A stretch of 64,000 bases of DNA from an uncultured Methanoregulaceae archaeon (GTDB lineage: Archaea > Halobacteriota > Methanomicrobia > Methanomicrobiales > Methanospirillaceae), in the NCBI GenBank assembly GCA_963701095.1, contig OY969564.1, positions 2,048,001 through 2,112,000 of the forward strand, given 5' to 3'. Every line of letters begins with the position of its first letter. The stretch's first letter is position 1. Of the stretch, positions 21,254-45,926 are shown piece after piece. The notes under the pieces were generated by a model. That model saw nothing but the letters and a program-made list of their open reading frames with translations, did not search any database and was not told the DNA's origin. The position numbers were made by a program, and so were the translations under genes.

Positions 21254-22459
21254 GTGTACATGCGTGTCGCTGACCCCGAAGGATACCGGTATGCCACCGA
21301 GGAGAAAGTCAATCGCAGGATTGATTCCTTTCCTCCTGATGAACGTGAACTGGTAAGAGAGTACATCAATACCAGTAGAGCCCAGAAGGGTATAAAATTA
21401 GTCAGGGTTGTTGGAATTATCGCTGGTCTGAAAGCCTGGCGGGATATCATCAAAAAACCGTTTCAGAAATGGACGCGCAATGATGTTTACCAAGGTGTTA
21501 CCTTCGTACGGGACAAAAAAAATTACAAACAAAATACGTCGATCATTTACATCGCCCTTATGAAAGCGTTCCTGACATGGATGATCACGGAGAAGTATTC
21601 GAAAATTCCCCTTGAAGAGATCATTAAAATCCAGTTGCCGAAAGGCGATACTGGATCCTTCAAACCTGGCGACATTCTTACCGAAGAAGAAGTCAGGACT
21701 ATTCTCTCATGTTGCGGATCTGATCGGGACAGGGCGTTGATTGCCTTGCTCTACGATGGAGGTTTCCGCATGGTTGAAGCGGCAATGATGACCTGGGGAG
21801 ATCTCGATTTTCAGTTCGATGACAGGATCACTGCGCGTACCTCACAGAAAACCTATGTCCCCCGTGTGGTTTCCCTTATGTCTTGTAAAGAGCTGATTGC
21901 AACATGGCGCTCACATTACCCGGGCAATCCGGTAGGCGATAACCCTGTTTTTGTAACCAGGGATGGCGAACCATTTACGTACTCGACAGCCACTGAGGTT
22001 ATAAAAAGTATACGGCTTAAAGCGATCAAGAAAGGTCTCGATCCAAAGAGAATTAAATTACACCAGTTCCGACGAGCATCAATTACCCATGAGGTCAATA
22101 AGGGACGCCCGATTTCTCATATCTGTATTGAACGCTGGGGCCGGGCATATTCTCCGATGATTGAGGTATATGCAAAACCCAGTGAGCAGGACGTTCTTCG
22201 CTCAAAGATGGAAATGTTCGGCGTAGAACCCAAACGGAAATATGAGAAGCGGAAAACAGCGATGACACCGACTCAATGCCAACATTGTGGTTTTATCAAT
22301 TCACCAGAAATTGAGTTCTGCGGAAAGTGCGGGAAACCGTTGTCTGAAGAAGCATTGACTGAAATTGAAATACTCCGAAAGGAGAGAGATATGGCTTTGG
22401 ATTTGGTGAACAAAGCGTATAAGGAAGGAAAGTTGGATTTAAAAGAACTTACGAGGTAG
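21254..22459 (+). CDS. tyrosine integrase with C-terminal zinc ribbon
   Basis: RDRALIALLYDGGFR, LHQFRR, RWG, EVYA catalytic set; CQHC...CGKC. Confidence 0.9.
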   Translation: MYMRVADPEGYRYATEEKVNRRIDSFPPDERELVREYINTSRAQKGIKLVRVVGIIAGLKAWRDIIKKPFQKWTRNDVYQGVTFVRDKKNYKQNTSIIYIALMKAFLTWMITEKYSKIPLEEIIKIQLPKGDTGSFKPGDILTEEEVRTILSCCGSDRDRALIALLYDGGFRMVEAAMMTWGDLDFQFDDRITARTSQKTYVPRVVSLMSCKELIATWRSHYPGNPVGDNPVFVTRDGEPFTYSTATEVIKSIRLKAIKKGLDPKRIKLHQFRRASITHEVNKGRPISHICIERWGRAYSPMIEVYAKPSEQDVLRSKMEMFGVEPKRKYEKRKTAMTPTQCQHCGFINSPEIEFCGKCGKPLSEEALTEIEILRKERDMALDLVNKAYKEGKLDLKELTR

Positions 22460-23866: not shown

Positions 23867-24331
23867 ATGATTCGGACCACAGTCTATCTCGATCAGGATT
23901 ACGAGGATCTTAAACCCCTCCTCAAGCGCCGGGGAGTGACTAATTTTTCTGAGGTCTGCCGGGATCTCATTATGTTCCTGATAGGCGATGGGGAAACAGA
24001 ACTCACCAAGACGCAGATACGGGAGCTCACAAGCCAGTTTGCCAAAATGAAACTTGCCGAACTGCAAAAACAGCAGAAGATAACCGGAGCGACCGAAGAG
24101 GAAAAGCAGAAGATCGACGCATTCCGGGCAAAGCGGATGGCCAAGATCATCGAATCGGTAAAGGTAGAATCCTCTCGCATAGGCACCGACCGGTTCAAGC
24201 GATACCTGGATGATCCGTATGGTGACTATGCAATCATCCAGGACGACATTATTGCTGCGGTATCTCAGGCTTCCGGGTATCAGGTAAATCTTGCGGACCT
24301 CATCCAGGCATTCAAGGCAGTATCATCATGA
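23867..24331 (+). CDS. viral protein with RHH-like N-terminus
   Basis: MIRTTVYLD...NFSEVCRDLI. Confidence 0.6.
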   Translation: MIRTTVYLDQDYEDLKPLLKRRGVTNFSEVCRDLIMFLIGDGETELTKTQIRELTSQFAKMKLAELQKQQKITGATEEEKQKIDAFRAKRMAKIIESVKVESSRIGTDRFKRYLDDPYGDYAIIQDDIIAAVSQASGYQVNLADLIQAFKAVSS

Positions 24332-24795
24332 CCCGGTCGTGGCCTGTCTCTCCAGATGCGAAGGAGTCCCGCCGGGGCGCTCGTATCAAGAACGCGAAGA
24401 AAACCGTTATCGATGGGATACTGTTTGCGTCACGTATGGAATCCCGGCGATATGTCGAGCTTAAGAAACTGAAAGCGGCTGGTGTCGTGACTAAAATCGA
24501 GTGCCAGCCGGTATTTGAACTCCAACCGGCGTACCGGAAATGCTGCGACGTGACATATAACGCCGAAGATGCGCCGTTCCTTTATAAAAAAGGTATCTGC
24601 GAGTGTTGCGGGAAGAAGATGCCGATAATCAAAGCGATCCGGTATGTTGCCGATTTCCGTGTGACCTATGCAGATGGCAGGGTAGAGATTGAAGATGTAA
24701 AAGGCCATGAAACCGAAATTTTCAAGATCAAGAAAAAGATCCTGGAATGCAGGTATCCGGAGATCACGCTTAAAGTAGTAACGAAGGTGCGGTGA
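24328..24795 (+). CDS. DUF1064-family PD-(D/E)xK nuclease
   Basis: IDGILFAS..E..RY, YVADF, IEDVKG; Cys-rich insertion. Confidence 0.82.
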   Translation: MTRSWPVSPDAKESRRGARIKNAKKTVIDGILFASRMESRRYVELKKLKAAGVVTKIECQPVFELQPAYRKCCDVTYNAEDAPFLYKKGICECCGKKMPIIKAIRYVADFRVTYADGRVEIEDVKGHETEIFKIKKKILECRYPEITLKVVTKVR

Positions 24796-25914: not shown

Positions 25915-26724
25915 TCAAAAAAAATCAGATAGAGAAGAGTTTATATTTTTTATCTTTTTTGGCGGGTAATATACACCTATCAATAACCAATTATTCCACT
26001 TGCTTTCTGTCCCCATATAAAAATAAATATCTCGTTTTGTGAGCTCGTCAAAATATTTTTGTTTGACCTTCGCAAAGCAGTTATCCAATCCATATTTATC
26101 CCGCATCTTTCTCCACAGTTCACCCAGTTCCCAATCTTCACACATCATGTTATGATCTTTACATCGATCATCACAACATCTGAAATGATACCCCATCCAA
26201 TAAGGAATATATTCTAATGGTGACTTGTAATCTCCACAAAGTGTGGTTTGTCTTCCGGTGATTAATTCCTTCTCCCAATCCCTGCATGCACCACGATCTT
26301 TTTTATAAAAATCAAAAATTCGATTGGGTTTGATCAATCCTAAGGATGTTCCATCCTCTTCAGATCGCTCTATCAAGTCTTCAACTGATTTATTCAGGAG
26401 AGGAAGGATAATTTTATTTCGTGCATCCCAATCAATGGGGCTTTTAGAGAGGGACTCATCAACTATTTCTATGGTATCTGGTTTTATTTTGTGGCTTTCC
26501 TTTCTTTGGTATTTTTCATGTTCTTTTGATTTTTGTGCTTCTACTTCAATCCAAATGTATCTTTTAAATTGTTTATGAGGCGGGAGCTTGCGAAAAGGTA
26601 CTGGATACATCCTTATCCAGTTTCCTTCGTCGGTTATACCTGCCACACATACTGTTTCTTCATATTTTTCACTTAAATTTGGATACGCCTTAACAGTAAC
26701 AAAAACTTTAACTTTTTTCCACAT
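25915..26724 (-). CDS. conserved DUF488-associated protein (probable OB-fold)
   Basis: VKAYP..S.KY.ETVCVAG...WIRMYPVPFR, SLGLIKP, DWELG; AT-rich. Confidence 0.65.
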   Translation of the reverse strand: MWKKVKVFVTVKAYPNLSEKYEETVCVAGITDEGNWIRMYPVPFRKLPPHKQFKRYIWIEVEAQKSKEHEKYQRKESHKIKPDTIEIVDESLSKSPIDWDARNKIILPLLNKSVEDLIERSEEDGTSLGLIKPNRIFDFYKKDRGACRDWEKELITGRQTTLCGDYKSPLEYIPYWMGYHFRCCDDRCKDHNMMCEDWELGELWRKMRDKYGLDNCFAKVKQKYFDELTKRDIYFYMGTESKWNNWLLIGVYYPPKKIKNINSSLSDFF

Positions 26725-26783
26725 ACTTCCCTTTAAAGCGAATAATAATAAATTCTTCGAGTATTAGAGAATTTTTAACCGTC

Positions 26784-27827
26784 TTATAAATCAATTCTTT
26801 CTTTAAATTCACCGGTTGCTAATATCAAGTTTGCCAAAATATGCCTATGGCAATGTATTTTCTGATCTCTAGTTGGTTTGGCATGCTTTTCCATACACAT
26901 TAAAACGGTCTTGCCGTTACTTTTTATTTCATCCACAAATTTCTTGAAGTCCATTTCTTTCTCAGTATGCCATTTGTAATATTTTTCAAGACATTCTATA
27001 GGAATAGCTCCATCCTTGTATGGGTTTTGCCATTCATATGGAATCCCAAGATCGGGACGGTGCTCGTATTTTATTTTGGCTCTATCCAATTCCCTTGCTA
27101 GAATGGATTTATTAAAATCTGGTTTATATTGAGATTCTGCTGAGAATCGAACGTCTATCAGACGTACGATACCATTATTTTTGAGTATCTCAATGAACTG
27201 TTGAATTTCTTTCCCCTCATAGCCGATTGTATAAATTGTATTATTGAGGAAACGATCTCTTTCCCTTCTTGCATCCTCCTCATTAGTTATATTCTTTGAT
27301 TTTAATATTTTTAATAACACGGGCTGTGCTGATTTCTCAAGCGATGAAATAATTAGTGCTATTGAGTTGCTTATGCTGCCATCAGCCAACGCCTTAGCTA
27401 CGGTTTCATGTAAATCTAAAGCCAGTTGTACCCTGCTATTTACCCAAGTGTGGCTTTTACCAACTTTTTCTGCTATTGCAGCACCTGATAATTTAGTGGT
27501 CTCCATTATTGCTTTTAAAACTCGCCCCTGTTCAACCTGACTCATTTCTTGCCTAAGCAGGTTGGTTTTGATGCTGAGAAACATTGCATCAAGATCACTG
27601 AGGTCTTTCACAGTGGCTTCAATCTCCTTCCATCCGAGTTCTTTAGCTGCTTGGACTCGGTTGTGTCCACCAATTAATTCATACCCTTCTCCCTTGGGTC
27701 TTACGAGGATCGGATTCCACTGACCATCTTCTTTAAGACTTTCTCTTAATTCACTGATGTACTCAGGATCGAGTTTTTCACGAACAGTAAAAGTCGTATC
27801 ATCAATTTTGCTTATTTTTATCTTCAC
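26784..27827 (-). CDS. ParB/Srx-HTH-DUF488 fusion protein
   Basis: SLKEDGQWNPILVR...GGHNRVQA, HTH, then IYTIGYEG, LIDVR, LMCME...CHR. Confidence 0.88.
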   Translation of the reverse strand: MKIKISKIDDTTFTVREKLDPEYISELRESLKEDGQWNPILVRPKGEGYELIGGHNRVQAAKELGWKEIEATVKDLSDLDAMFLSIKTNLLRQEMSQVEQGRVLKAIMETTKLSGAAIAEKVGKSHTWVNSRVQLALDLHETVAKALADGSISNSIALIISSLEKSAQPVLLKILKSKNITNEEDARRERDRFLNNTIYTIGYEGKEIQQFIEILKNNGIVRLIDVRFSAESQYKPDFNKSILARELDRAKIKYEHRPDLGIPYEWQNPYKDGAIPIECLEKYYKWHTEKEMDFKKFVDEIKSNGKTVLMCMEKHAKPTRDQKIHCHRHILANLILATGEFKERIDL

Positions 27828-27871
27828 TGATCATCACCTAAAAATTGTTTTTGAGTTTTTTATGATTCATC

Positions 27872-28087
27872 TTATTTATTTACCTTCCAAGTAATATTAC
27901 CACTCGTTTTTTCTCTGATCAATCCTATGTCCCTCTCCATCCATTTAACCCAAGTATTGTTTGGCACTTTTTGAGGGAAATTTGCTCTCGTTTTTATCTC
28001 ACTCCAAGTGAGTCCCCGAGGATTTGTTATTAACAGATCTTTTATCTTTTCTTTAAACGTTTCATACGTCATTTTCTCTTCTTTCAT
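27872..28087 (-). CDS. small winged-helix-like protein
   Basis: KIKDLL...GLTWSEIK pattern; first gene of the cassette. Confidence 0.55.
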   Translation of the reverse strand: MKEEKMTYETFKEKIKDLLITNPRGLTWSEIKTRANFPQKVPNNTWVKWMERDIGLIREKTSGNITWKVNK

Positions 28088-28369
28088 TCTCAGCTGCCCC
28101 TTATATTTTTACTTTTAGATACTTCCCCCAAATATAAATGAGTTTTCTTTAGTTCTTTTTACACTCTTTTCGATAATCTTCTACGACGTTAATTTTATGG
28201 GAATATTTCAGTAAGGATTTTTGCATTTAGGGATAAATCGTGGCTTCTCCTGGGCTAGTGCTATCCATTCACACCCACCCTCCCGTACCCTCATTGACCG
28301 TCCTGAACCTCACCTATCGTTTATCTCAGTCCCGCAGCCATTTTCCTTTGTATTTCCCGCAAGTATGCG

Positions 28370-28840
28370 GTGAAGGACACGTGCACTATGCCAGACAACG
28401 GAATGTCAGCCGATATCCTCGGCCTGTTTTTCGGTCAGTACAACTCCGCAGAAGGTGAGACTGACCCCAGTACCGATCTCACGATTGCAAAATCAGATCT
28501 CCTCGGTCTTGGTTCCGAACGCCTCATTGTAGGCCGGTACGCATGGAAAAACTCAACCAACCACACGCCATCCCTCGTCTGCCAGGTGGCAATCGACGGG
28601 CTTCCAATCATATCTGATTATGGCGGTGCAAACATCTGGGCCTCAGGTCGTGCCGGAACCATCGATGAAGTGGTATTTCAGTATCCCAACACCGCAAAAG
28701 CTCTCTCGCTTGGCAAACACACCGTCACCATCACGCCCGGTGTCCATTATGGCGTTCTGGGCGCCCAGAACACCTTCGGTATCGGTTTCCCGGCAACATC
28801 CTGGTTCACCCCCAGGACGTTCAGCATCACGTTAGTGTAA
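28370..28840 (+). CDS. viral hypothetical protein (beta-rich)
   Basis: 156-aa ORF with virus-like codon usage. Confidence 0.6.
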   Translation: MKDTCTMPDNGMSADILGLFFGQYNSAEGETDPSTDLTIAKSDLLGLGSERLIVGRYAWKNSTNHTPSLVCQVAIDGLPIISDYGGANIWASGRAGTIDEVVFQYPNTAKALSLGKHTVTITPGVHYGVLGAQNTFGIGFPATSWFTPRTFSITLV

Positions 28841-28843
28841 ATC

Positions 28844-29311
28844 ATGCCCCTTTCACCCGATAAGATCGGCAATGGTGTAGCCGGGATAGATTTCGACCCG
28901 TATGCCGGGCAGGAAGACAGCCCGTTTCTGCCTAACCCGCTCGTCCTGCTCTGTTTCCTCATCGGACAAGTGTACCCACCGGCCATGGACTGGATGGGAT
29001 ACTTTCCCCCTCACAATTACCGCCAGTGGCACATCGTCGAACAGGCGCTCGCGGCAGGCTGGAACAATGGCGCCATCAAGAGAGGTGTCGTTCCTGCCAT
29101 TCCAACGTGCCCGATCCTCTGGCAGGACGTTTCCCACTACTGGAACTTCGGCGGTATTGTCGGGATCCTTGCCTATGAGCTGGTTGCATACATCCGCGTT
29201 GTTATGGTCATCGTCGGGCTCCTGCTACTCGTGCACTGGAATACCCTCACGCCCCAGAAAGCGCTCACGATCATCCTGCAGCAGTTCGGGATCGTGGTGC
29301 CTACGTCATAA
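28844..29311 (+). CDS. viral membrane protein
   Basis: C-terminal hydrophobic segments. Confidence 0.6.
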   Translation: MPLSPDKIGNGVAGIDFDPYAGQEDSPFLPNPLVLLCFLIGQVYPPAMDWMGYFPPHNYRQWHIVEQALAAGWNNGAIKRGVVPAIPTCPILWQDVSHYWNFGGIVGILAYELVAYIRVVMVIVGLLLLVHWNTLTPQKALTIILQQFGIVVPTS

Positions 29312-29327
29312 GAATATGAACACCATC

Positions 29328-29421
29328 GGGTCTGTGTTTGCTGCCGTCTGGACGCTGTTCCATGGTACGGGTGCAAAGCTCTTACACCTTCAAGGGTGCG
29401 GTTCGTTCCGCCACAGATCCA
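29328..29421 (+). ncRNA. tRNA-like multibranch structured RNA
   Basis: GGGTCTGTG/CACAGATCC closing stem, GCGG-TTCGTT-CCGC T-arm-like hairpin, two internal hairpins. Confidence 0.5.
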
Positions 29422-29498
29422 TGCCCGGTGTTGCCGGTGGTTTGGTCACCAGCCGGCCGCCCGGGACAACTAACGACAATGCCTTTGCACATCCTCTA

Positions 29499-29528
29499 TC
29501 CGGCGGTTGTTCACCTCCTCCCGCCGGA
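29499..29528 (+). ncRNA. hairpin exposing an anti-Shine-Dalgarno sequence
   Basis: TCCGGCGG/CCGCCGGA stem; loop contains TCACCTCCT. Confidence 0.4.
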
Positions 29529-29532
29529 ATGT

Positions 29533-29608
29533 GCCACTGAAGCACCTGCTGGCTCGGTGCGTTCAGCCTGTAACTGAAAGGGCGCAGGTTCGATTCCTGC
29601 CAGTGGCT
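29533..29608 (+). tRNA. tRNA-Thr(UGU), atypical
   Basis: acceptor GCCACTG/CAGTGGC+T, D stem GCAC/GTGC, anticodon arm TTCAG-CCTGTAA-CTGAA, T arm GCAGG-TTCGATT-CCTGC. Confidence 0.8.
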
Positions 29609-29612
29609 TTCC

Positions 29613-29765
29613 ATGCGAACACGATTCTGTAGAGAGTGTGGGGAAACGTTCGAGGCGGTTGACGATAACGACTGGCTCTGCAAGAAATGTCTGCTCGCGG
29701 GATTCCGCGTATTATCCCAGGATACCAGAAAAATCGCCAGGAAAGAAGAGGTTCCGAACCAATGA
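29613..29765 (+). CDS. small zinc-finger protein
   Basis: MRTRFCRECG...LCKKC; ATGA overlap with the next gene. Confidence 0.55.
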   Translation: MRTRFCRECGETFEAVDDNDWLCKKCLLAGFRVLSQDTRKIARKEEVPNQ

Positions 29766-30373
29766 AAAACCCGTTAAAAGAAGAACCTGTGCCTGCCGGT
29801 GTGGGTAAAATCCTGCTGACGCATCTCATCCCGGATCCAAAGAACCCGCGTAAAGATCTTAAAAAAGGCGATCCGGAATTTGAGAAGATCACCACGTCCC
29901 TTGAAAAGTTCGGACAACTCGATCCGATCATCTTCAATACCCGTACCCGGAAGGTGCTCGGCGGTCATCAGCGGTTGAAAGTCCTCGCATCAAACGGATA
30001 TACGGAACTTAACACGTTTACGGTAGGGGCATACACCTGGGCATTTGCAGAGACCGATCTTGCAGAACTCTCACCATCGGAAGAAAACGCTGCTAATATC
30101 GCCCTGAATAAAGCGCAAGGCGACTGGAACGTGGACCAGCTCCTGATCAATCTCCAGGATCTTAAAGCCGAGGGAATGCTCGAGGTCTCCGGGTTTGATG
30201 AAAAGGAGTTCGAGAAATTAAAAAAGAAACTGGGAGAACCCGAAGATTCCAGCGACACCTCCCTGAAATCCGCGTTTGAAGTCATTATCGAGTGTGCTAA
30301 CGAAAGCGAACAGGAACAGGCGTATAACGAGCTCGTAGAGGCCGGGTACAAATGCCGCGTTTTGACATTGTAA
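29762..30373 (+). CDS. ParB-like N-terminal domain protein
   Basis: PDPKNPRK...SLEKFGQLDPII...GGHQRLKVL...NIALNK. Confidence 0.85.
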   Translation: MKNPLKEEPVPAGVGKILLTHLIPDPKNPRKDLKKGDPEFEKITTSLEKFGQLDPIIFNTRTRKVLGGHQRLKVLASNGYTELNTFTVGAYTWAFAETDLAELSPSEENAANIALNKAQGDWNVDQLLINLQDLKAEGMLEVSGFDEKEFEKLKKKLGEPEDSSDTSLKSAFEVIIECANESEQEQAYNELVEAGYKCRVLTL

Positions 30374-31437
30374 AGAAAACGGAAGCTGCCGGAACGTTCA
30401 AGGTTGAACAGGTAAAGGGCGCCTTCGATCTCCAGACATCTACCATCCAGGAGCATTTTGCCGGCGACATTGCCATTGAAGGTAAAGACTGGAACATCGG
30501 CCTGATTGTAGGCCGGAGCGGAACAGGGAAAACCACAATCGCAAAAGAATGCTTCACTGATGCCTACATAGCGCCAAACGATTATAGCCTGGCTGCAATC
30601 GTGGATCAGATGCCGAATGGACTTTCCTATGCTGAAATCACGCACATGTTCACGGCTGTAGGTTTTTCATCACCTCCTTCATGGCTGAAACCATACGCGG
30701 TACTGAGCAATGGGGAACAGATGCGGGTCGACCTCGCCAGGGCCCTTTTGGAAGAGCGCGAGTTGATAGTGTTCGATGAGTTTACGAGCGTGGTAGACCG
30801 GGACGTTGCGAAAGTCTGCTCTCTGGCGGTCAGTAAAGCCGTCCGAAAGATGGGTAAAAAGTTTGTCGCCGTTTCCTGTCACGATGATATCATTGCATGG
30901 TTGCAACCTGATTGGCTCTACGATACCAATCAGCAGACGTTTTCCTTTCGGGACGGCCACGAAAAACGCCCTGAAATCACGGTTGACGTATTCGACACCC
31001 ACAGAAACGCAAAGCTATGGAAGGTTTTTGCGAAGTATCACTATCTGAATACCGAGATTAAAAGGGGCACGGACACGTTTGTAGGCTGTATCAATAATGA
31101 ACCTGTAGCCTTCTGCGCTGTCAGGCATTTTCCTCACCCGATGAATCCCAGGATAAAGATGGTTCACCGGCTGGTTGTCCTGCCGGATTACCAGGGAATA
31201 GGTATAGGCACCCGGTTCCTGGGATTTGTTGCTGACCTGTATAAGAAAAAGGGATTTGCCGTTCGCCTGGTTACTTCCCAGGTGTCGCTTATCAATTCCC
31301 TGGAAAAACACGGCTGGCGGTTGAAATCGTTCGGCCACCAGGCTAAAGTAAAGAAGGCTGGACTAAAACATCTGAAAAAAACGAACAGTAACCGCAGGAT
31401 TACCGCATCGTTCAAATATACTGGGGGGATTAATTGA
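30352..31437 (+). CDS. ABC-ATPase-GNAT acetyltransferase fusion
   Basis: GRSGTGKTT, LSNGEQMR, VFDEFTS, then HRLVVLPDYQGIGIG acetyl-CoA motif. Confidence 0.88.
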   Translation: MPRFDIVKKTEAAGTFKVEQVKGAFDLQTSTIQEHFAGDIAIEGKDWNIGLIVGRSGTGKTTIAKECFTDAYIAPNDYSLAAIVDQMPNGLSYAEITHMFTAVGFSSPPSWLKPYAVLSNGEQMRVDLARALLEERELIVFDEFTSVVDRDVAKVCSLAVSKAVRKMGKKFVAVSCHDDIIAWLQPDWLYDTNQQTFSFRDGHEKRPEITVDVFDTHRNAKLWKVFAKYHYLNTEIKRGTDTFVGCINNEPVAFCAVRHFPHPMNPRIKMVHRLVVLPDYQGIGIGTRFLGFVADLYKKKGFAVRLVTSQVSLINSLEKHGWRLKSFGHQAKVKKAGLKHLKKTNSNRRITASFKYTGGIN

Positions 31438-31952
31438 CCAAAAAGAAATCCCCGTCTGAAAAAACGGGAAAAAGGGGTCGTCCGCCCGCATTTAAACCCG
31501 AATTTCACTCTAAATTAGTACTCGAACTCGCAGAGCAGGGAAAGACCAATGCCGAGATCGCCGAAGGCATGGGAATATCAACCGGGACTTTGTGGGCTTG
31601 GGCTAAGAAATATCCTGAATTTCTAAGCGCCCTAAAGACCGGCAAGGAGGAAACCGACAAAGCGGCAGTGAAGACCCTCTTACAGCGTGCGATGGGATAC
31701 ACGACGACCGAAAAGAAAGTTATCCAGAATCCCGACGGCTCCACTCGTAAAGAAATTACGGAAAAATTCGTTGCTCCCGATACAACCGCCTTAATATTCT
31801 GGCTCAAGAACCGCCAGCCACAGGATTGGCGCGACAAGCACGAACAGGAGATCACCGGGAAAGAAGGTGTTCCATTATCAGGGCTCATGATCCCGCCCGA
31901 ATCGTTAAAAGACGTTGGTGATCTCCTCGCCAGAAAAAAGGAGCGAAAATAA
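31434..31952 (+). CDS. terminase small subunit
   Basis: RGRPP, HTH, PDTTALIFWLKNRQPQDWRDK. Confidence 0.85.
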   Translation: MTKKKSPSEKTGKRGRPPAFKPEFHSKLVLELAEQGKTNAEIAEGMGISTGTLWAWAKKYPEFLSALKTGKEETDKAAVKTLLQRAMGYTTTEKKVIQNPDGSTRKEITEKFVAPDTTALIFWLKNRQPQDWRDKHEQEITGKEGVPLSGLMIPPESLKDVGDLLARKKERK

Positions 31953-32570: not shown

Positions 32571-34099
32571 ATGGCAGCCCGTACGATGTCCGATTCTGAT
32601 TATCAAAAATGCGTGACAGCTCAAACGAAGGGTATCCTTGTCAGTTCGTGCCGATGTTTTATCTTCCACATTTTTAATTATGTGATCGAACCACATCACG
32701 AGAACATCCTCGCCCACGTTGAGAGCTACCCGTTGACCCTTGACCTTGCTCCGAGAGGGTCAGGGAAAAGCCGGATTGTAACGATAGGCTATGCGGCGTG
32801 GCGGGCAATCGTGGACCCGGACATCCGTATCCTCATCCTCAGCGACACAGATGATCACGCAGTCCGGTTCCTCAATACCATAAAGACCGCCCTGCATCAG
32901 CATCCTCTTATTAAACAGCATTTCGGCCCGGTCGAGGGCGATAAGTGGACGGATCACCAGATCGTTCTTGCCGGCAGAAAGAAGATCCTTACCGAAGCCA
33001 CGATTACCGCCTTGGGTGCATATTCCGGGGCGGTCACGTCAGGACACTATGACCTTATCATCTGCGATGACCTGGTGAACTTCGAGAACAGCCGGACAGA
33101 AGGTGGCCGGGCCCGGATGCTCGAATGGTTCAAACAGACCCTTCTGCCGACACTGATACCGGGGGAGAGCTGCACGTTGTCGGCACCCGGTACCATTTTC
33201 TCGATCTTTACCAGATCATGATTGACGAGCTCAAATACGATACCAAAATCCAGCGGGCAATCATCCAGACCGAAGACGGCGAACATTCGATCTGGGAAGA
33301 GTATATGCCGCTTCTTGACCGGTGCGATGCGGTGACCGGTAAAAAAACCGAGGGGCTCAAAACCATCCAGGAAAACCTGGGCCCGGTTGTGTTCAATCTC
33401 CAGTACCAGAACGATGCCGAACTCATGAAGAAAGGCAGTATCTTTGAATATGACTGGTTCCGCTGGTACGAGATGGAAACACGGGAAGATGGCAGCCTGT
33501 GGATTCTCCGGTCGGACATGGCGCCGGTCGCGGTCAGCAAACTTACGATCTATGCGGGAGTAGACCCAAGCATCGGAGAAGGTGACCAGAGTGATTTCTT
33601 CTCGGTCTGCGTGATAGGCGTCGACCGTTTCACGAAAGAGATCTTTGTGCTCGATATTTTCAAAGGCCGGCTTTCGTACGATAACCGGGCCCGGATCGTG
33701 GATGCGAAGTACCAGCAATGGCATCCGTCTATTATCGGCATAGAAGATGTGGCCTTCCAGAAGGAATTCGTCCAGAGGGTACGGCAGACATTCCCCTATA
33801 TCAGGGTCAAGGAGATAAAAACAACGAAAGATAAGGTCAGCCGGGCGTATGGCCGGAGTGGCCTCGTCCAGAATGGTAAAGTTTTCGTTAAGAAAGGGAT
33901 GGCTGATTTTGTTGAAGAATTGTGCATTATGCCGGACGGCGCCCACGATGACCAGTTCGACGCATTTGATTTTGCCGTCGCGGTATCCGAGTCTGCGCAG
34001 GGTGGTGCAAAGAGTACACCGCTCCCGGGTTCAGGGAAATGGACGGGCGGCATGAAAACCGGTGAATGTGAACCGATCTGGAAGCAATTGTACAGGTGA
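32571..34099 (+). CDS. terminase large subunit (frameshift in G-run near 33165)
   Basis: APRGSGKS, LIICDD, VVGTRYH, AGVDPS, HDDQFDA. Confidence 0.92.
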
Positions 34100-34102: not shown

Positions 34103-35764
34103 ATGGGTATTCTGAATAAAGTGAAAAAAGCGACTGCGGCTGGTCTCGGCACATTCTCTCGTGTCATGAAGGCACCCAGCTACAGTGAAGAGATAGAAGC
34201 GGATCTTGCGTACCGGCGCCGTGTTGCACTGCGTAAAAGTAGCCGGTACTCTGATTCGCTCAACAAATACGAGGTCACATCCGTAGACCAGGCACGGGCA
34301 TTGAATATACGTGCCAACCAGCTCATGCATGACCCTATGCGACGGGCGATCTATTCGGTCAATTCCTACATGAACATCTTCGGGATTCCCCGCCCGACCT
34401 TCTGGAAAGCCGATAATGACCGCCTTGCCCGGAACGCCATCTATGCCGTATGCGAGAAACGGATTATGGATACGGTTGAGACGGTCGAATGGGATGTCAC
34501 CGATGCCAATAAGGAAAGCGTCCAATCAGCCGTCCAATTCCTTAAAAAACCCAACCCGCAGCAGACATTCCAGATCCTTCTTAAACAGACTATCCCGGAT
34601 CTCCTGCGCTACGATCAGGCGTGTTGGGTCAAGACCCGGTCGATTGCCGGTAAGATTCTCGAACTGAAAGCATACAGTGGTCCGGAATTCTGGATCGAGG
34701 TCGATAACCATTTCAATGAAATCATGGGGCAATACGGCCTTTCCTATTTTGGTCCCTGGTCACACGGGTATGTGAAACGGTACTGGCAGCATTCAAAACC
34801 CGGTATCTACATTCCTTTCGCGCCAAAAGATGTCTGTTTCCTGATGATGTATCCCCGTGCGGATTCTATTTACGGGACGGATTTCATCCAGCAGATCCGG
34901 TGGCAGCTCGAATACCTCATCGATAGCACCAAAGCCGCCGGGATGACCTTTGCGAACGGTGTTGGGCCCTCAATGGTATGGAAACATCCTGACCTTAACA
35001 GCATCGAACAGCTGGAAGAGCGTGGGATGGAAGTCGAGCTCGAAAACAAAGGCCCGGAGAATTTCGGCAATATCCTTCACCTTATCGGGCAGGAAGATAT
35101 CAGCACCATTTTCCCTGAGCTCATGAACATGCAATGGCTCGAAGGCCAGAAGTTGATCTCGTCGATTGTCTGGGCGATGTTCGGGTTTTCTGCGTCTGAA
35201 TTCACCGGGGACGATGTTAATCGTGCGACCGCTTATATCAACCAGAATATCACTAAAAGCAAGATGCTGGCTCCGCTTCTCCGGCATCTCGAAACAGTCA
35301 TCAACGATGAAGTCCTGCCCGAACTCGATGGCTATCAGGAAGGCTGGACGTTTGCGTTCAAACCGGTTATCGAACTCGACGATAAGATCAAGGAAATGCA
35401 ATATCTCCAGACGCAGGCCCAGGTCGTAAAATCATACGTGGATATGAATGTCCCATTGGAAGAGGCTATGCGGCTCGCGGAAGTCGAGGAAGAGCATATC
35501 ACTTCGGTTACAACCGCCATGAATACTGTGAATCAGAAGGATTCGATGGAAGCAGCATACCACCGATTGCTTCAGGCCAACAACCTGCCGCCCAATCCGG
35601 GAATAGCATCCGCACCAGATGAAACATACCAGAAGCCTCTTGCTGATCCCGGCGTAGCGCCACCATCGGGCCCACACCGGGAGGGATATCAGGGAATTGC
35701 CGAGACTGACAGTGGCAGACCGGAGGATGACGGGCAGACCAATAAGAAGCCTATCGGACGTTGA
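34103..35764 (+). CDS. portal protein (HK97-like)
   Basis: follows terL; KKPNPQQT, IYGTD, FANG.GP, LAPLLRHLE..IN. Confidence 0.85.
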   Translation: MGILNKVKKATAAGLGTFSRVMKAPSYSEEIEADLAYRRRVALRKSSRYSDSLNKYEVTSVDQARALNIRANQLMHDPMRRAIYSVNSYMNIFGIPRPTFWKADNDRLARNAIYAVCEKRIMDTVETVEWDVTDANKESVQSAVQFLKKPNPQQTFQILLKQTIPDLLRYDQACWVKTRSIAGKILELKAYSGPEFWIEVDNHFNEIMGQYGLSYFGPWSHGYVKRYWQHSKPGIYIPFAPKDVCFLMMYPRADSIYGTDFIQQIRWQLEYLIDSTKAAGMTFANGVGPSMVWKHPDLNSIEQLEERGMEVELENKGPENFGNILHLIGQEDISTIFPELMNMQWLEGQKLISSIVWAMFGFSASEFTGDDVNRATAYINQNITKSKMLAPLLRHLETVINDEVLPELDGYQEGWTFAFKPVIELDDKIKEMQYLQTQAQVVKSYVDMNVPLEEAMRLAEVEEEHITSVTTAMNTVNQKDSMEAAYHRLLQANNLPPNPGIASAPDETYQKPLADPGVAPPSGPHREGYQGIAETDSGRPEDDGQTNKKPIGR

Positions 35765-35902
35765 ACATATTGGGATTTTATGGGATTATAAATGGGTGCG
35801 AATTCGGCGAAATCTCAAGGTATGGGGGGATTAGGCTCCGTAGTTCGTTTTAATCACTCGTATCAGCTAAACTTATCTGATAGTTCATAATATTACTGTT
35901 CA

Positions 35903-38464
35903 ATGGTAGAGAATAAACCTGAAACTATAATAGAGACTTTTGAATCAAAGGTGAAAAAACTTGACGACACAATTACGGAAGATGTGACCGCATTAAAAGC
36001 AAATAAAAATCAGACTATAACCAAAATAACAAATATTAATGAAAAAATCAACTCCGAACACGTCCAATTTAAACAAGTCCTAATCAAAAACGGCGAAAAT
36101 TTTAAAATAGATCTTGGAAAAAGATATAATCTTTATCTTAAAAAGACCGCCTCTGTTAAAGAAAAACTCACAACGGTATCGACGCGACTCTTTAATTCTC
36201 AATACTTCGCAATTTGTGTTCTGTTACTAAGTATTATATTTTTTTTGACACATTTACCTTCGATTTCTGATGTATTTCAAAATTCAGTTATTAATGGGAT
36301 TATTCCGGTTTTACTTGTTTTCACTATTATCAGTTTTGTAATTTTCACTCGCGAAACGTTTAAAAAAATCAATGAAGTAAATCCTGAACCTATTGAGGAT
36401 TTAACTACGGATTTAAATGGCGTTGAATTTGAAGATGTGAGCGTTTATGATTTTAAGGAAGATATCATTGAACAAAAACGGAGCACAGATCAACTAATTT
36501 CTTCAGCACAATCGGCGTTAGATATCATCCTATATAAAATTCCTATGTACAAAGATTATGTTGAAGATGAACATTTTAGGAGAAAATGGGAACTTGGGTG
36601 TGATGAGTACCAGAATGCTTTGAAGTTTTTTGGCTTAAATTATAAGGTTCAATTTCAAAAACTTAAGGATAAGCCGAATATTGACTCAAAAAGAGTTGAT
36701 GATTCGATATTAGATTCACACATTCTTAGTGATGTTTCAATGACTCTGAACATATCGTCTGCAATTGTTCAGATCTTAGTTCAATATTATCGAGGGAACA
36801 ACGCTCAAATTCTCTGGGAGGAAATTAAAAAGGATACATACAAATTTCAGTTGTTATCTCATACGTTATACAACTCAAATCAGATAGATATCGATAGATT
36901 GAGATTATCTGAAACAGATTTTCAAAATATTATCTTAAAAACAAAAGAGTTCAGTATTAGCCAGATCTCTAAAAATTCATCATTATTTGTTCAAATAAAG
37001 TTAAAACTCGAAAATTATGAAAAAATATTAATTGAAAATGAGATACCGCTAGAAAAGACGACTGATTTTGATGAATTAATCAATTCAATTAATTTCAACC
37101 AGACCTTTGAAAAGAATTTTTTAAATGTACTCTCTCATAAAATCATTCCGATTCTCCCGGTCGAACAAACTCAAGCATACGAAAAAGCGATTATTGCAAT
37201 TTTGCTTAACGATGAAATACTATTCAAAGATATAGTATGTAAAGATGCTAAAGATGATGATACTGTTCTTGTTTTAATGACATATCACGAGATGTTGCGA
37301 GAAAGAAAAGAAAATAAGCAAGTATTCAAATTGAATGATTTATTAGTCAATTTGCATATATTGGAATCAACTAAAGAAAGAATTCAAACCGAAGTTGAAC
37401 TAAAGAATCGTTTTGTTTATTTCAAGAATGATTTGTCTCGTGGTTTTTGGTGGGATGACGGATTATCATTACAACGGAAAATGTTTGATGATCTAAAACA
37501 GGATTTCAGTCAAAAAATCGATAAATTAGATAGGTCTATAATTATTACAAAATTATTTGAAAAAACCTTTACAGAAATTAATATCAATACAGTTGATAAG
37601 GCCATTGATGCGAATTTATTTTCGACTTATCTAATACTCACAAGCGCCAGTAAAGGGCACCTACTTCCTTTTTTGGATCCAATTAGTATAAGAAATCCTG
37701 ATAAGACAAAAAAAGATTTTTCAGAATTAAAGACATACGAGAAAAAATATGGAATAACCTTAATAAAGGACGGTAAGCCGAAATATGATTTCACGAATTA
37801 TTCAACTAGGACAAGAATAGGTGTTCTCCCGCGAAATACAAATTTTTTAGCCTTCGTTCAAGAAATGAAAGATGATGTCAACAAAATTTTGCAAGCCGAA
37901 TCCCAATTTGCTGAAGAAGAAATGGAAGATATTGGATTGGCTATTATTCGCGTAACGCCATCAAAATATAGTTTCGGTTTACTTGATGATGAGATTGAGA
38001 AAAGCAGTAATGTAAGAACAAAAGATTTACATATTGCAAAAATTATCGCAATTTTAGCTAAAGATTATACTTCGAATTCGGAGCAATATCTTATGTCCGC
38101 ATTCGACGGAAAGATAAACCTAACAGAAATTTTTAATCAATTGTCAATCTTTGAATTGATTCCAGCAAAAGAAATGGATCTCTCTCCAGAATATGAAGGA
38201 TTTTTAAAAAGTGATAGCCTAAAAAAGGCTATTTTAGCTTCCCTAAAGAAAGAGGGGATATCCAGTATTAAGGTATTATCAAAAACCGTTAGAAGCAATA
38301 AAGAAAATCATATATTTTTGAAATCTATAATTAGCGAAGCAATTGTTGATGAATATTTTAAAAGAAAAGGTGTAACGATTCAAACGTCCCGATTGAATTT
38401 TTTAATGAGCGAATTAATGAAATCACTTGATTCCATTGCCGAGTTGATGGAAAATTTATCCTGA
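35903..38464 (+). CDS. large AT-rich hypothetical protein with coiled coil and two TM helices
   Basis: 853 aa; hydrophobic segments near residues 100-150; AT-rich. Confidence 0.75.
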   Translation: MVENKPETIIETFESKVKKLDDTITEDVTALKANKNQTITKITNINEKINSEHVQFKQVLIKNGENFKIDLGKRYNLYLKKTASVKEKLTTVSTRLFNSQYFAICVLLLSIIFFLTHLPSISDVFQNSVINGIIPVLLVFTIISFVIFTRETFKKINEVNPEPIEDLTTDLNGVEFEDVSVYDFKEDIIEQKRSTDQLISSAQSALDIILYKIPMYKDYVEDEHFRRKWELGCDEYQNALKFFGLNYKVQFQKLKDKPNIDSKRVDDSILDSHILSDVSMTLNISSAIVQILVQYYRGNNAQILWEEIKKDTYKFQLLSHTLYNSNQIDIDRLRLSETDFQNIILKTKEFSISQISKNSSLFVQIKLKLENYEKILIENEIPLEKTTDFDELINSINFNQTFEKNFLNVLSHKIIPILPVEQTQAYEKAIIAILLNDEILFKDIVCKDAKDDDTVLVLMTYHEMLRERKENKQVFKLNDLLVNLHILESTKERIQTEVELKNRFVYFKNDLSRGFWWDDGLSLQRKMFDDLKQDFSQKIDKLDRSIIITKLFEKTFTEININTVDKAIDANLFSTYLILTSASKGHLLPFLDPISIRNPDKTKKDFSELKTYEKKYGITLIKDGKPKYDFTNYSTRTRIGVLPRNTNFLAFVQEMKDDVNKILQAESQFAEEEMEDIGLAIIRVTPSKYSFGLLDDEIEKSSNVRTKDLHIAKIIAILAKDYTSNSEQYLMSAFDGKINLTEIFNQLSIFELIPAKEMDLSPEYEGFLKSDSLKKAILASLKKEGISSIKVLSKTVRSNKENHIFLKSIISEAIVDEYFKRKGVTIQTSRLNFLMSELMKSLDSIAELMENLS

Positions 38465-38643
38465 TAGAATCTCCATATTTTGGGAAGTTTGAGGTTTTAA
38501 TATCAATATTTGGCTACAACCCTGTCGGAATTCAATGAAAAGTGATATCGTCGTAAGACGTCAATGATAACAAATTGAAAGTCCAAAAAGGCAATAGAAC
38601 CTTATTGATTTCCATCCATCTATCAACGTAACAAAAACATAAA

Positions 38644-41600
38644 ATGGAAAAGATAGATTTAACGGCAAACAAACTTCAAAATAACAATAGTCCACAGGGA
38701 GATATATCTTCAATGTCTAATGACCTGACCTTTATCACCAACGAAAATAACAGGACGTTATATGACCGGTTTAATACACTTATCAATAACACTTCTCTTT
38801 TTGATTGTCTTGTTGGGTATTTTTTCACAAGTGGTTTCAATAAAATATATCGTTCATTAGAGAATACAGAGAAGATTCGTATTCTCATTGGCATCAGCAC
38901 GAACCCACAGACGTATAAATTGATTCAAAATGCACAGCAACAGCAAAGACTGGTTTCCGATTATGAAGTAAAGGAAACCTATAGTCAATCTATTGTGCAG
39001 GAATTTGACGAGTCTCCAGATAATTCCGATGTTGAGACTGGCGCGAAAAAATTTGTTGACTGGATCCTTTCAAAAAAACTCGAAGTTCGTGCATATCCCA
39101 CGGAAAAAATTCACGCTAAAGTCTATATCATGACCTTTAAACAGGGTTCGGTTGATGTTGGCCGGGTTATCACAGGTTCAAGTAATTTCACAGAAGCAGG
39201 TTTACAGCACAATCTTGAATTTAATGTGGAACTGAAGGATCGCAGAGACTATGAATACGCCCTTGAAATGTTCAATAAATTGTGGGCCGAATCAGTGGAT
39301 GTCTCGGAGAAATATGTTGAGACGATCAAAACAAAAACTTGGCTGAATGATGAGATTAAACCCTATGAACTCTACCTGAAACTATTGTATGAATATTTCA
39401 AGGACCGTCTTCTCCTCGATAGTTACGAATTGGAACAGGGCATTATTCCTGACAACTTCATGGATCTCAAATATCAGCGAGATGCGGTTCAGGATGCCAA
39501 ACAGATCCTCGAATCATATGGCGGAGTTTTTATTTCTGATGTTGTCGGTCTTGGTAAAACCTACACGACAACGCTTCTTGCCCGAGAACTAGACGGCAGG
39601 TCTCTAGTAGTAGCCCCTCCCGGATTACTTGACCGGAATAACCCGGGTTCCTGGCCAAATGCATTTGGAGAATTCGGTGTCAGGCAGGGAGAATTTGAAT
39701 CAATCGGGAAGCTCGACTCAATAATTGAGAACGGGGTTGATCGTTTCAAGAATGTAATTATTGATGAATCACATGCATTCAGAAATGAAGAAACCCAGAG
39801 ATATGAAAAACTCGCCCAGATATGTAAGGGGAAACGGGTTATTCTCGTATCTGCCACACCGCTGAATAATACCCCCCAGGACATTGTTGCCCAAATCAAG
39901 CTCTTTCAGGATGGACACAAATCCACCCTACCTAATCCGATTGTGAAGGACCTTGATGCGTATTTTGGAAAGCTCCAAAGACGGCTTGACAACGTAAACC
40001 GGAAGGAAAATCCGAAAGAATACATCAAGATAATGCAAGAAAATTCTGCAGAAATCCGAAAAAATGTTCTTGATTATCTGATGGTGAGAAGGACTAGAAC
40101 CGTTATTGAAAAATATTACAAGAGCGATCTTCGGGTTCAGGGTCTGAAATTCCCCAAGGTCGACGATCCCAAACCCGTGTACTACAATTTTGAAAAAGAT
40201 GTTGAACTTGCATTTAATGAATCGTTGAAATTGATTACTAAATCTCTCAAGTACAGTCGATATACTCCCCTTTTATATCTTAAAAAGATTGACCAGCGCG
40301 AACGAATGGGTCAGATAAATATGGGAAGGTTCATGAAGGTCCTTCTTTTGAAAAGACTGGAGAGCAGTCAATATGCATTCAAGATGTCAATCGGCCGATT
40401 TATCCATTCATATGAACGGGTAATCGAAGAATATGAAAAAGGCTTTGTCTATGTCAGCCGAGATTATGCCCAGAAAATTTTTGATCTTCTTGAGAGCGGG
40501 AGTTATGAGATAATCGAGAAGATGATCGATGAAGATCGTGCTACAAAATATGCCATTGACCAGTTTGATGAATCGCTGATAAGTGATTTAAAAAGCGATC
40601 TCGATGTCCTGAAAAAAATTAGGGGATTGTGGGAAACGATCACTATTGATCCTAAACTTGAAGAGTTCAAGAGACTTCTTGCCAAAGATAAAATCCTGAA
40701 GGAAAACAAACTCCTGGTATTCACCGAAGCAATGGAAACGGCAGAGTACCTTGAGAAGAAACTCAAATCCGAAGCATTTTCTGGAGCTGGAGTACGGTAT
40801 TTCTCCGGTACTGAAGGAACGACCAACAGAAATGAAATCATCCGGAATTTTGATGCGACGTCGCGGAATCAAAGAGATGATTTCCGAATCCTGATAACAA
40901 CCGATGTTCTTTCCGAAGGAATGAACCTGAACCGGTCGAATGTAGTGATTAATTATGATATCCCCTGGAATCCGGTCCGGATGATGCAGCGGGTCGGTCG
41001 TATTAACCGCGTGGCTAAGCGATTGCCCTATGACACAATTCATACGTACAACTTTTTCCCGACTGGTAATATTGAAGAAGAGATCGGCCTGGAATCTGCA
41101 GCAGAAGCAAAAATAGAAGCATTTATCGAAATGCTGGGAGACGATGCCCCACTCCTTCTAGATGAGGAGGTAAAATCCCATGAATCACTATTCAAGAAAT
41201 TGAATTCCCGGGAAATCATTGTTGGTGAAGAAGAGGATGACCTGGAGCTTGCGTATCTTCAGGAAATCCGAAAAGTCAGGGATGAAGAAAAGGAATTATT
41301 TGATAAGATCAAGAAACTTCCAAAGAAGGCCCGTTCCTGCAAAAAATCTGATATTGATGGAGTTATCACATTTTTAAGACGCGGGGATATGAGTAAATTT
41401 TATCTTAACGATAAAAACTCAGTTAAAGAAGTTGATTTTGTTATCGCTGCAGGGCAGGCGAAAACCCAGAAAAATACAAAACGTTGTCCGCTTTCCGAAT
41501 CGTTCTACACATTACTCGAAGCAAACAAAAAAGCGTTTGATATTGTTTTTCATTTCGATGAACTGGGACTGGGGCATGCTGCAGCCAGTACTGCAGAGGG

Positions 41601-44800: not shown

Positions 44801-45365
44801 TCCAGCAATAAAAGATTATTTGAAATCGTTTGGTAAAAAAATCGAACAAACCGGTGAAGAATTTTTGGATAATGAGGGAAAAAAGAGAAAAAGTCGAAAA
44901 AAAACATCTCACAAATGGTTTGAGGTTCAAGACAGTACATCCTATTGGAAAGAGTTTCAGAAAGAGAAATTATTCTGGATTGATTTGGTCGATAACGGTC
45001 GTTTTTCATACGATTCAGATGAGATGTTCGCTGAAAATACTGCATATATAATGACTGGAGAATCGATAAAATATCTTGTCGCGATACTAAATTCAAAATT
45101 GATAAATTACTACTTCAGCTTAATTTGTGCCACATCGGGTATGGGAACAAATAGATGGATAAAAATTTATGTCATGGAATTACCTATTCCCAAAATCACC
45201 GATATGGCACAACAACCGTTCGTAAAATTGGTTGATATCATTTTACGGAAGAAAGGGGGTGGCGAAAACACTAAAATGGATGAGGATGAACTCGACAGGC
45301 TTGTCTATAAATTATATGGTTTGAATAATGATGAAATTGCAATTGTAGAGGAATATAACAATTAA
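41882..45365 (+). CDS. Eco57I/type IIG-like adenine methyltransferase with TRD (frameshift near 43830)
   Basis: PFLNGGLF, FYTPRE, DPAVGSGAF, GNPPY, TaqI-C-like end. Confidence 0.88.
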
Positions 45366-45421
45366 TTCAAATTTTTTGCGGTATCGTTCATCATCTCCCT
45401 GAATCCATTATCTCTTCAGAA

Positions 45422-45460
45422 TGCCCCTATATAATCACCCAATCCTGAATACCTGATATC
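45422..45460 (+). promoter_or_regulatory. putative viral late promoter, copy 1
   Basis: TGCCCCTATATAAT, 25 nt before the ATG at 45461. Confidence 0.5.
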
Positions 45461-45841: not shown

Positions 45842-45926
45842 TAACTCCCACGACCAAAGCCATGAGTTTTTGCTGATTTAATTATAAAAGAAACTGATAA
45901 ATTCTCATTTTCAAAAGGTATTTGTT

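Follow-up and report, generated by a model that had tools for sequence, protein, structure and literature searches.

A conserved tRNA-like RNA and a tRNA gene as candidate processing signals in front of the packaging genes of an archaeal provirus

The locus

This report concerns a gap of 301 nucleotides (nt) between two protein genes in a 64-kb stretch of genomic DNA (G000:C1:2048001-2112000, G000 being the host genome), referred to below as the window. The host is an archaeon with McrA (a methane producer), and the window contains a provirus of a tailed virus. The gap contains a transfer RNA (tRNA)-like element (element 1), a GC-rich interrupted hairpin, a second hairpin with a loop resembling the anti-Shine-Dalgarno sequence, and a gene for tRNA-Thr (Table 1). 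All four structures had been named in an original prediction made from the letters of the window and are present where it placed them; it had also described them as nearly filling the gap, and they occupy 242 of the 301 nt. The central finding is that element 1 belongs to a conserved RNA family, and that either the element or a tRNA ends a few nucleotides before the start codon of a small cysteine-rich open reading frame (ORF) at the head of the packaging genes. Both RNAs may serve as processing signals there.

Upstream, the gap is bordered by an ORF of 155 amino acids (aa) for which no family match was found. Downstream follows the 50-aa zinc-ribbon-like ORF, which lacks a Shine-Dalgarno (SD) sequence and whose stop codon overlaps the next start as ATGA. 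The packaging side continues with a ParB-like gene, a gene for a protein combining a P-loop ATPase with a GNAT domain (phrog_11143), TerS, TerL, and the portal gene.

Table 1. Features of the locus, with two features of related loci; positions are those of the window unless another sequence is named.
Feature	Position	Strand	Remarks
Integrase	21254-22459		first in the provirus gene order
DUF1064 resolvase-like gene	24328-24795
phrog_25907 and ParB-N/HTH/DUF488 fusion	25915-27827	minus	low GC (36%)
Two unannotated ORFs	28370-29311
Upstream ORF, 155 aa	28844-29311	plus	stop 16 nt before the tRNA-like element
Gap under study	29312-29612		301 nt
Element 1, tRNA-like four-way-junction RNA	29328-29421	plus	covariance model, nine-copy alignment
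Element 1, acceptor-like stem	29328-29334 with 29414-29420		7 base pairs (bp), GC-rich; extension in the window, 29335-29336 with 29412-29413
Element 1, arm A (long)	29337-29377		about 40 nt; three stacked helices, conserved internal loops
Element 1, arm B (variable)	29379-29396
Element 1, arm C (T-like)	29398-29411		4 bp, 6-nt loop
Element 1, discriminator A	29421
GC-rich interrupted hairpin	29424-29465	not set by folding	begins 3 nt past element 1
Hairpin with 14-nt loop holding UCACCUCCU	29499-29528	not set by folding
tRNA-Thr(UGU)	29533-29608	plus	ARAGORN, Rfam
TTCC spacer, tRNA 3' end to ATG	29609-29612	plus
Zinc-ribbon-like ORF, 50 aa, CxxC...CxxC	29613-29765	plus	heads the packaging-side operon
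ParB-like gene (phrog_620/498)	29762-30373	plus
ATPase and GNAT gene (phrog_11143)	30352-31437		after the ParB-like gene
TerS	31434-31952
TerL, two frames	32571-34099
Portal	34103-35764
Viral tRNA of genome G337	3423-3504 of L052 (G337:C185)	minus	50.4 bits
Schlafen/AlbA_2 protein and AbiEi/AbiEii pair	5112-7847 of L048 (host genome C1, ~405-408 kb)		1.4-4 kb upstream of the L002 element

Structure of element 1

The minimum-free-energy fold of element 1 is a four-way junction, which corresponds to the tRNA-like multibranch fold of the original prediction; the fold energy alone is unremarkable (z -2.18, 4 of 200 shuffles as good). The junction is regarded as validated because eight further homologous copies show compensatory changes. 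In the nine-copy alignment, which was fitted to the model and comprises mutually related sequences, standard pairs are found in 97.4% of cells, as against 36-53% when the partners are slid by 1-3 columns. Changes on both sides occur in 10 of the 26 pairs, none of the five helices is without such a pair, and 15 cells stay paired through changes of this kind; the observed covariation score was reached by none of 500 shuffles. RNAalifold, run on a plain MAFFT alignment not fitted to the model, yields the same acceptor stem and the same arms A, B, and C, and uses a different register inside arm A, where two pairings are possible for the tandem GCC(U)GCCG / CGGCACGGC repeats. The RNA is assigned to the plus strand by its G.U and U.G pairs, whose minus-strand counterparts would not pair.

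The acceptor stem is followed by U8 and by G9, which pairs with the C following arm C. Acceptor stem, G9-C pair, and arm C thereby form 12 stacked pairs, as in a tRNA. In the long arm A, GUGUUU and CUGCCGUCUGG are invariant in eight of the nine copies, while its tip varies freely in length and sequence, as does arm B, which stands at the anticodon position (3-5 bp; unconserved loops of 4, 5, 8, or 9 nt, which read UCAC, GUUCG, UUAA, or, at 8-9 nt, contain CACCUUC). The arm C loop is a 6-nt UUCRNN in eight copies and has 7 nt in the copy of G337, another genome of the host's genus. The discriminator is A in seven copies and C in two (L039 and L040). A non-canonical cloverleaf with an acceptor stem stacked on a T-arm, supported by covariation, is the structure that characterizes a t-element, and it is this structure that element 1 displays.

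Several other classes were considered and rejected. A canonical tRNA (RF00005, gathering score 29 bits) has no match at E<=10 within 29200-29750 apart from tRNA-Thr; ARAGORN finds nothing at element 1 by default and calls it only at a threshold of 70%, with mismatched arms, and the element has no anticodon loop, a 6-nt arm C loop, and a 40-nt arm at the position of the D arm. The tmRNA mode of ARAGORN finds nothing either. A bulge-helix-bulge intron in arm A would show two 3-nt bulges on opposite strands with a 4-bp helix between them, and its splicing would leave a 7-nt anticodon loop. Arm A instead has a 3' bulge of 4-5 nt, a 5-bp helix, and a 5' bulge of 3 nt; splicing with the geometry of the host tRNA-Trp would leave a 9-nt loop, and the would-be anticodon GCC is lost in G337. 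Introns are carried by the tRNA-Trp and tRNA-Met genes of the host. The wobble G.U in the acceptor stem shifts between pairs 1, 2, and 3 across the copies, and an identity of the AlaRS type (G3.U70) was rejected because the position of this pair is unconserved. A conserved protein ORF across the region, which the original prediction had named as the finding that would speak against it, is not borne out at the element. The copies measure 81, 85, 87, 90, 90, 91, 91, 92, and 94 nt and carry single-base indels inside conserved blocks, so that no frame can be conserved across them; plus-strand frames of this short, GC-rich element are open in eight of the nine copies, and the flanking ORFs end before the element and begin after it. 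No antisense target was found in the host genome for the conserved 12-mer of arm A or for the anti-SD loop.

Occurrence of the element

The nine distinct copies come from the host genome (four), from G337 (one), and from viral or metagenome contigs (four). A BLAST search with the 301 nt against the host genome was the starting point and returned two further copies of 29328-29421 (74% identity); the fourth host copy was spotted by eye upstream of a paralogous ParB-like gene. A first pattern scan of IMG/VR gave one real copy among four stretches, and a scan of metagenomes four among seven, one of them identical to the IMG/VR copy. A covariance model (R1) built from five copies scores 81-103 bits for the host, IMG/VR, and metagenome copies (81.6 bits for that of the window) and 37.1 bits for the divergent copy of G337.

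The element family is rare. With R1, it is present in 2 of 108 genomes of the genus (host and G337) and in 1 of 151 genomes drawn across the order, namely the host itself, as no element was found in the 150 others. The best R1 match in the host genome beyond the four copies is tRNA-Val(TAC) (19.5 bits, E 0.63). Eight IMG/VR loci with a phrog_11143 homologue of 46-61% identity, which look like AT-rich bacterial phages, contain no element, also when searched with filters off. A search based on TerS returned one locus, which is without the element, and a 16-nt pattern of the G337 type gave more than 120 IMG/VR stretches, with no match to R2 in any of the 81 loci searched (80 from the scan and L053). 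Further candidates were discarded: the BLAST matches obtained in 4 of 60 relatives turned out, when inspected, to be coding sequence or chance similarity, and none of the four stretches from a scan of GTDB genomes was real (two from Bradyrhizobium and one from Blastocatellia scored 12.8-15.3 bits; a third Bradyrhizobium stretch had no match at E<=1).

The original prediction had proposed Rfam as a check. Rfam recognizes the tRNA-Thr, and no family of Rfam 15 matches element 1: hits at E<=10, searched with three copies, are noise far below the gathering scores. Element 1 thus represents a conserved RNA family that is absent from Rfam and previously undescribed. Searches of the open-access literature gave no report of tRNA-like elements in archaeal viruses, and none of messenger RNA (mRNA) 5' ends directed by tRNAs in a prokaryotic virus.

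Placement in front of the packaging module

In eight of the nine loci, a spacer of 4-5 nt separates the 3' end of the element or of a tRNA from the ATG of a small Cys-rich ORF. The RNA in question is the element in six loci, where the spacer reads TTGAC (L003, L037), TTCC (L024, L039), TTCAC (L007), or TTAC (L040), and a tRNA in the window and in G337, where it reads TTCC (as in L024 and L039) and TTCA, respectively. In the six element loci, the element precedes a conserved 49-aa Cys-rich ORF without an SD sequence, after which comes a ParB-like gene with its own GAGGT. Across the loci, the small ORF is succeeded by the ParB-like gene, phrog_11143, and TerS, or directly by TerS, TerL, and portal. 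The same spacing is thus kept by three different RNAs and three different small ORFs.

The window shares its TTCC-ATG with L024 and L039, but here it is tRNA-Thr that abuts the TTCC; for this reason, positions 29422-29608, 187 nt with the order hairpin, spacer, hairpin, tRNA, read as an insertion between the element and TTCC-ATG. G337 shows, independently, the order element, GC hairpin, hairpin-rich spacer of 280 nt, tRNA, TTCA, and ATG, and its 63-aa Cys-rich ORF is followed by TerS, TerL, and portal. The ninth copy (L002) is followed by a hairpin and then by a DUF6009-like ORF. It lies outside any provirus-like module, with no terminase nearby, in a setting that resembles a defence island, with Schlafen-AlbA2 and AbiEi/AbiEii genes; the AbiEi/AbiEii pair is 1.4 kb away from the element.

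The flanks are tRNA-like as well. The discriminator is followed by U in all 11 viral-type cases (nine elements, two viral tRNAs) and in 43 of 48 host tRNA calls, and CCA is encoded in no copy. Within 29312-29612, there is no run of four or more T, the terminator signal of archaea, so read-through from the upstream genes is plausible. A likely promoter region is the AT-rich divergent spacer at 27828-28369, and the RNAs probably belong to the operon transcript. The host encodes an RNase P RNA of the archaeal type (209.6 bits), and a homologue of RNase Z is present. The best RNase Z homologue (C1:873607-874489, minus strand) consists of two adjoining, slightly overlapping pieces that cover profile positions 1-150 and 147-296 (159.3 and 134.2 bits), which suggests a frameshift or an assembly error.

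The viral tRNAs

ARAGORN finds a single tRNA in the 64-kb window, tRNA-Thr(tgt), in agreement with the original prediction. It folds into the ARAGORN cloverleaf and scores 48.7 bits over the full Rfam model (1-71), the gathering score being 29, and it has the anatomy of a canonical tRNA except at position 33, where the anticodon loop CCUGUAA carries C instead of U. The pairs G1-C72, C2-G71, and C3-G70 and the discriminator U73 are the same as in the three tRNA-Thr genes of the host; beyond these positions, the similarity to the host tRNA-Thr(UGU) is distant. A 23-nt pattern of this tRNA has no match in IMG/VR.

Viral tRNAs are usually explained by codon supplementation. In 13 provirus ORFs, compared with 876 long host ORFs, ACA is used 10.5 times per 1000 codons (host 16.1), and the share of ACG is somewhat higher (0.30 versus 0.20). 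Codon supply is not convincing as the reason for tRNA-Thr. A takeover of translation, which the original prediction had contemplated, finds no support, as the codons of tRNA-Thr(UGU) are unenriched in the provirus overall and position 33 is C. In the tRNA of G337, the arms of the anticodon stem enclose 15 nt, a part that reads as a 9-bp stem with the loop UUAAUGU, and ARAGORN labels this tRNA Ile(aat); judged by its sequence, it is unlikely to decode normally. Both viral tRNAs thus deviate in ways that a processing signal may tolerate and a decoding tRNA should not.

The two hairpins

The GC-rich hairpin pairs as it had been described (-27.5 kcal/mol, z -3.10, 1 of 200 shuffles as good), and the second hairpin has an 8-bp stem (z -4.54, 0 of 200 shuffles as good) and a loop in which UCACCUCCU matches 9 nt from the 3' terminus of the 16S ribosomal RNA of the host (rRNA; genome position 1953890), as the name anti-SD loop had implied. 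For the whole 301 nt, the value is z -2.44 (3 of 100 shuffles as good). Both hairpins are real inverted repeats. Because they fold equally well on the minus strand, neither their strand nor a function at the RNA level follows from the fold.

The region 29422-29612 (hairpins and tRNA-Thr) has no homologues in the phage collection, and the 200 other genomes of the family yielded only T-arm matches of 28-31 nt in six genomes. In the same collections, the anti-SD-loop hairpin has no sequence relative and appears window-specific. In L002 and G337, too, the element is followed by a hairpin that is placed similarly and opens similarly (CCCG/CCCC), with no detectable sequence homology. Covariation and conservation, by which the original prediction was to be checked, are seen for element 1; the two hairpins are without sequence relatives.

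CU-rich motifs (AUCACCUCC, AUCUCCUCC, AUCACCUUC) are located within the 20 nt before the element in L003, L007, L037, L039, and L040. They are similar to the 3'-terminal sequence of the host 16S rRNA, have always the same sense as the element, and are also seen at 29513-29521 of the window. CACCUCC-like motifs recur immediately upstream of the element in several loci, in the long arm B loops, and in the second hairpin of the window.

Interpretation as tRNA-type punctuation

It is proposed that element 1 and tRNA-Thr are t-elements, i.e. tRNA-type processing signals in a polycistronic viral transcript, a proposal that we consider to have as good a chance of holding as of failing. Transcription would run through the region, RNase P of the host would make the 5' cuts at element 1 and tRNA-Thr, and tRNase Z would cut just past each discriminator base. 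These cuts would detach the upstream message, release the small RNAs, and leave a downstream mRNA with 4-5 nt in front of the AUG that opens the small Cys-rich ORF, near-leaderless and without an SD sequence, to be translated in the manner of leaderless messages. In most relatives, the tRNA-like element alone would do this job. In the window and G337, a tRNA gene would have taken over the position adjoining the ORF, with the element now placed upstream and a hairpin after it. The U after the discriminator, the lack of an encoded CCA, and the acceptor/T minihelix fit substrates of RNase P and tRNase Z, and the fixed 3' boundary 4-5 nt from the start codon argues for the formation of mRNA ends rather than for a function of the RNAs themselves. 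The original prediction had pictured a polycistronic small-RNA precursor cut by the two enzymes. Cutting is consistent with the anatomy (no terminator signal, host enzymes, U trailers); a free-standing small-RNA operon is not what is found, since the cluster lies inside an mRNA operon, with its 3' boundary next to a start codon in eight of the nine loci.

A number of observations weigh against this proposal. The 6-nt loop of arm C (7 nt only in G337) misfits a canonical T-loop, and with a 40-nt arm at the D position, acceptance of the element by RNase P and tRNase Z is putative. Arm A is more conserved in sequence than cleavage alone would call for, a hint that it has an additional function or is bound by a protein. 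In the window, L002, and G337, the element is followed by a hairpin and cannot define the 5' end of the ORF; the window copy has been preserved well even so (81.6 bits), though tRNA-Thr adjoins the ORF. The copies are related by descent, and eight of nine loci amount to about three independent configurations. A leader of 4-5 nt is only near-leaderless, and mRNAs of methanogens are mostly leadered. Finally, one copy (L002) is situated outside a provirus. Three of these points, namely the conservation of arm A, the element kept beside a tRNA in the window and in G337, and the non-proviral copy, keep a trans-acting role alive, if only as an unlikely one.

Alternative explanations

Such a trans-acting role would be that of a tRNA mimic: the released, anticodon-less element would bind or titrate a factor that recognizes the acceptor/T regions of tRNAs (a defence toxin, a tRNA-modifying or CCA-adding enzyme, or the neighbouring ATPase-GNAT protein, of host or viral origin), and its position next to an ORF would be mere genome compaction. 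This is unlikely, though it has several observations on its side: arm A is conserved in sequence more than the structure demands, the window keeps its element although tRNA-Thr occupies the ORF-proximal position, the L002 copy stands outside a provirus-like module close to AbiEi/AbiEii, and phrog_11143 joins a P-loop ATPase with a GNAT domain. Enzymes of the AbiEii family act on tRNA 3' ends. What such a mimic does not predict is the constant 4-5 nt to an SD-less ATG, kept by six element loci and two unrelated tRNAs; free variation is seen in arm B and at the tip of arm A, the acceptor G.U is not fixed, so that no conserved aminoacylation identity exists, and the conserved 12-mer is without an antisense target in the host genome. 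In a quite improbable version that goes beyond a cutting signal, the excised element would be a stable, anticodon-less tRNA mimic serving to lure away or soak up host factors by which the acceptor ends of tRNAs are attacked or inspected. It would be made as the packaging genes switch on, its processing thus coupling counter-defence to late expression; nucleotidyltransferase toxins of the AbiEii/MenT type are presumably one candidate target. For the anti-defence decoys suggested originally, no support was found and nothing against them either; the two hairpins are unrelated to the CRISPR repeat of the host.

The junction might also stay uncleaved on the mRNA as a cis-regulatory 5' untranslated region that controls or promotes initiation at the SD-less AUG, either as an operator for a viral protein (Zn-ribbon, ParB-like, or terminase) or as a tRNA-shaped device for loading ribosomes. 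The short fixed distance to the AUG and the missing SD sequence suit this idea, and the conserved internal loops of arm A could be a protein site. It is nevertheless judged distinctly unlikely, since genuine tRNA folds (48.7 and 50.4 bits) occupy the same place in the window and in G337; both would need to escape processing, tRNAs being normally excised, and neither the L002 copy nor the window element adjoins an AUG. A site acting at the DNA level (pac/cos, a replication origin, or an integrase attachment site) is very improbable. The location within 2.1 kb upstream of TerS and the hairpins that fold equally on both strands would be in line with it, but the 15 cells with two-sided changes and the G.U/U.G wobbles fit a single-stranded, plus-sense molecule. 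Moreover, no host tRNA offers an identical stretch as attB (best 19.5 bits), the integrase is 7 kb away, and the L002 copy has no terminase nearby. Hardly credible, and already disfavoured, is a decaying, functionless tRNA pseudogene amid chance hairpins in a GC-rich spacer: ARAGORN does call the element only at the 70% threshold, as a tRNA of 91-94 nt with poor arms, and the hairpins are without homologues, yet compensatory changes are found in all five helices across nine copies, while the ParB-like protein encoded nearby retains 48-51% identity between these loci.

Comparison with known systems

Processing of t-elements has precedents. In Haloferax, they are substrates of RNase P, which cuts at their 5' end, and of tRNase Z, which cuts at their 3' end (PMC4326828); for the tRNA-like structure that precedes 5S rRNA, the tRNase Z cut makes the 5' end of the 5S rRNA (PMC4326828; PMC3296008). 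Element 1 resembles the t-elements of Haloferax volcanii in being an archaeal, non-decoding, tRNA-like fold (PMC4326828; PMC3296008). The Haloferax structures are chromosomal and serve rRNA, whereas those reported here are viral, lie 4-5 nt before the start codon of a protein gene, and have a predicted cleavage.

In plant (Arabidopsis) mitochondria, t-elements, which are non-canonical cloverleaves, and real tRNAs beside genes form both 5' and 3' ends of mRNAs by guiding the cuts of RNase Z or RNase P (PMC1920247). The two kinds of signal are interchangeable in that system (PMC1920247), as they apparently are between the window and its relatives. The plant t-elements described there keep an 11-nt T-arm motif (GGTTCRANYCC), and the 10-nt GGTTCGTTCC of the window is one base short of it (PMC1920247). 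The other copies do not carry the plant-type motif either: they have GGTTCAYYCC-like 10-mers, one base shorter, and G337 has GGCTCACTGCC. In the plant system, mRNA ends lie mostly tens to hundreds of nt from the ATG, and the setting is organellar, not viral.

In the tRNA punctuation of animal mitochondria, intergenic tRNAs are excised, and the mRNAs start at or beside the AUG. These marks are canonical, if reduced, decoding tRNAs; in the provirus, one of the marks is without an anticodon arm. With its score of 48.7 bits, tRNA-Thr(UGU) looks like an ordinary tRNA gene of a phage or virus, and it differs from the usual ones by the unsupported codon supply, by C33, and by a 3' end that abuts an ORF.

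If the proposal is true, a virus of a methanogen forms the mRNA 5' end of its packaging genes by tRNA-type punctuation, and a purpose-built tRNA-like RNA and ordinary tRNA genes can replace each other in that role. The principle of t-elements, found in haloarchaeal rRNA and plant mitochondria, would then extend to archaeal viruses and to translation starts, and there would be a second reason, beside codon supply, for viruses to retain tRNA genes. The cassette (~85-94 nt plus TTCC-ATG) would be a compact natural means to define mRNA or guide-RNA ends in methanogens. The RNA family itself, with nine sequences, a covariance model, and a supported structure, is ready for description.

Further features of provirus and host

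The phrog_25907/ParB-N/HTH/DUF488 pair is oriented opposite to the remaining provirus and forms a second low-GC patch. The other one is an island at 35900-46500 (30-40% GC versus ~50%), placed between portal and head-tail adaptor (50370-51203). It contains an 853-aa ORF without a match, a PLD-nuclease/SNF2-helicase protein (phrog_26785, 38644-41889), and two methyltransferase-like ORFs (41882-45365), and looks like a restriction or defence cassette inserted into the provirus. TerL consists of two overlapping ORFs in different frames (32571-33221 and 33125-34099) that match consecutive parts of the phrog_38 profile; a frameshift, a sequencing error, or programmed slippage could account for this. 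The host genome harbours a CRISPR array (C1:147509-151404) in which one repeat word occurs at least 20 times. It also has two more provirus-like modules related to that of the window (C1, ~98-108 kb and ~787-808 kb), with identities of 77% for DUF1064, 81% for phrog_11143, and 48-51% for the ParB-like protein, and each of the two modules carries its own copy of the tRNA-like element.

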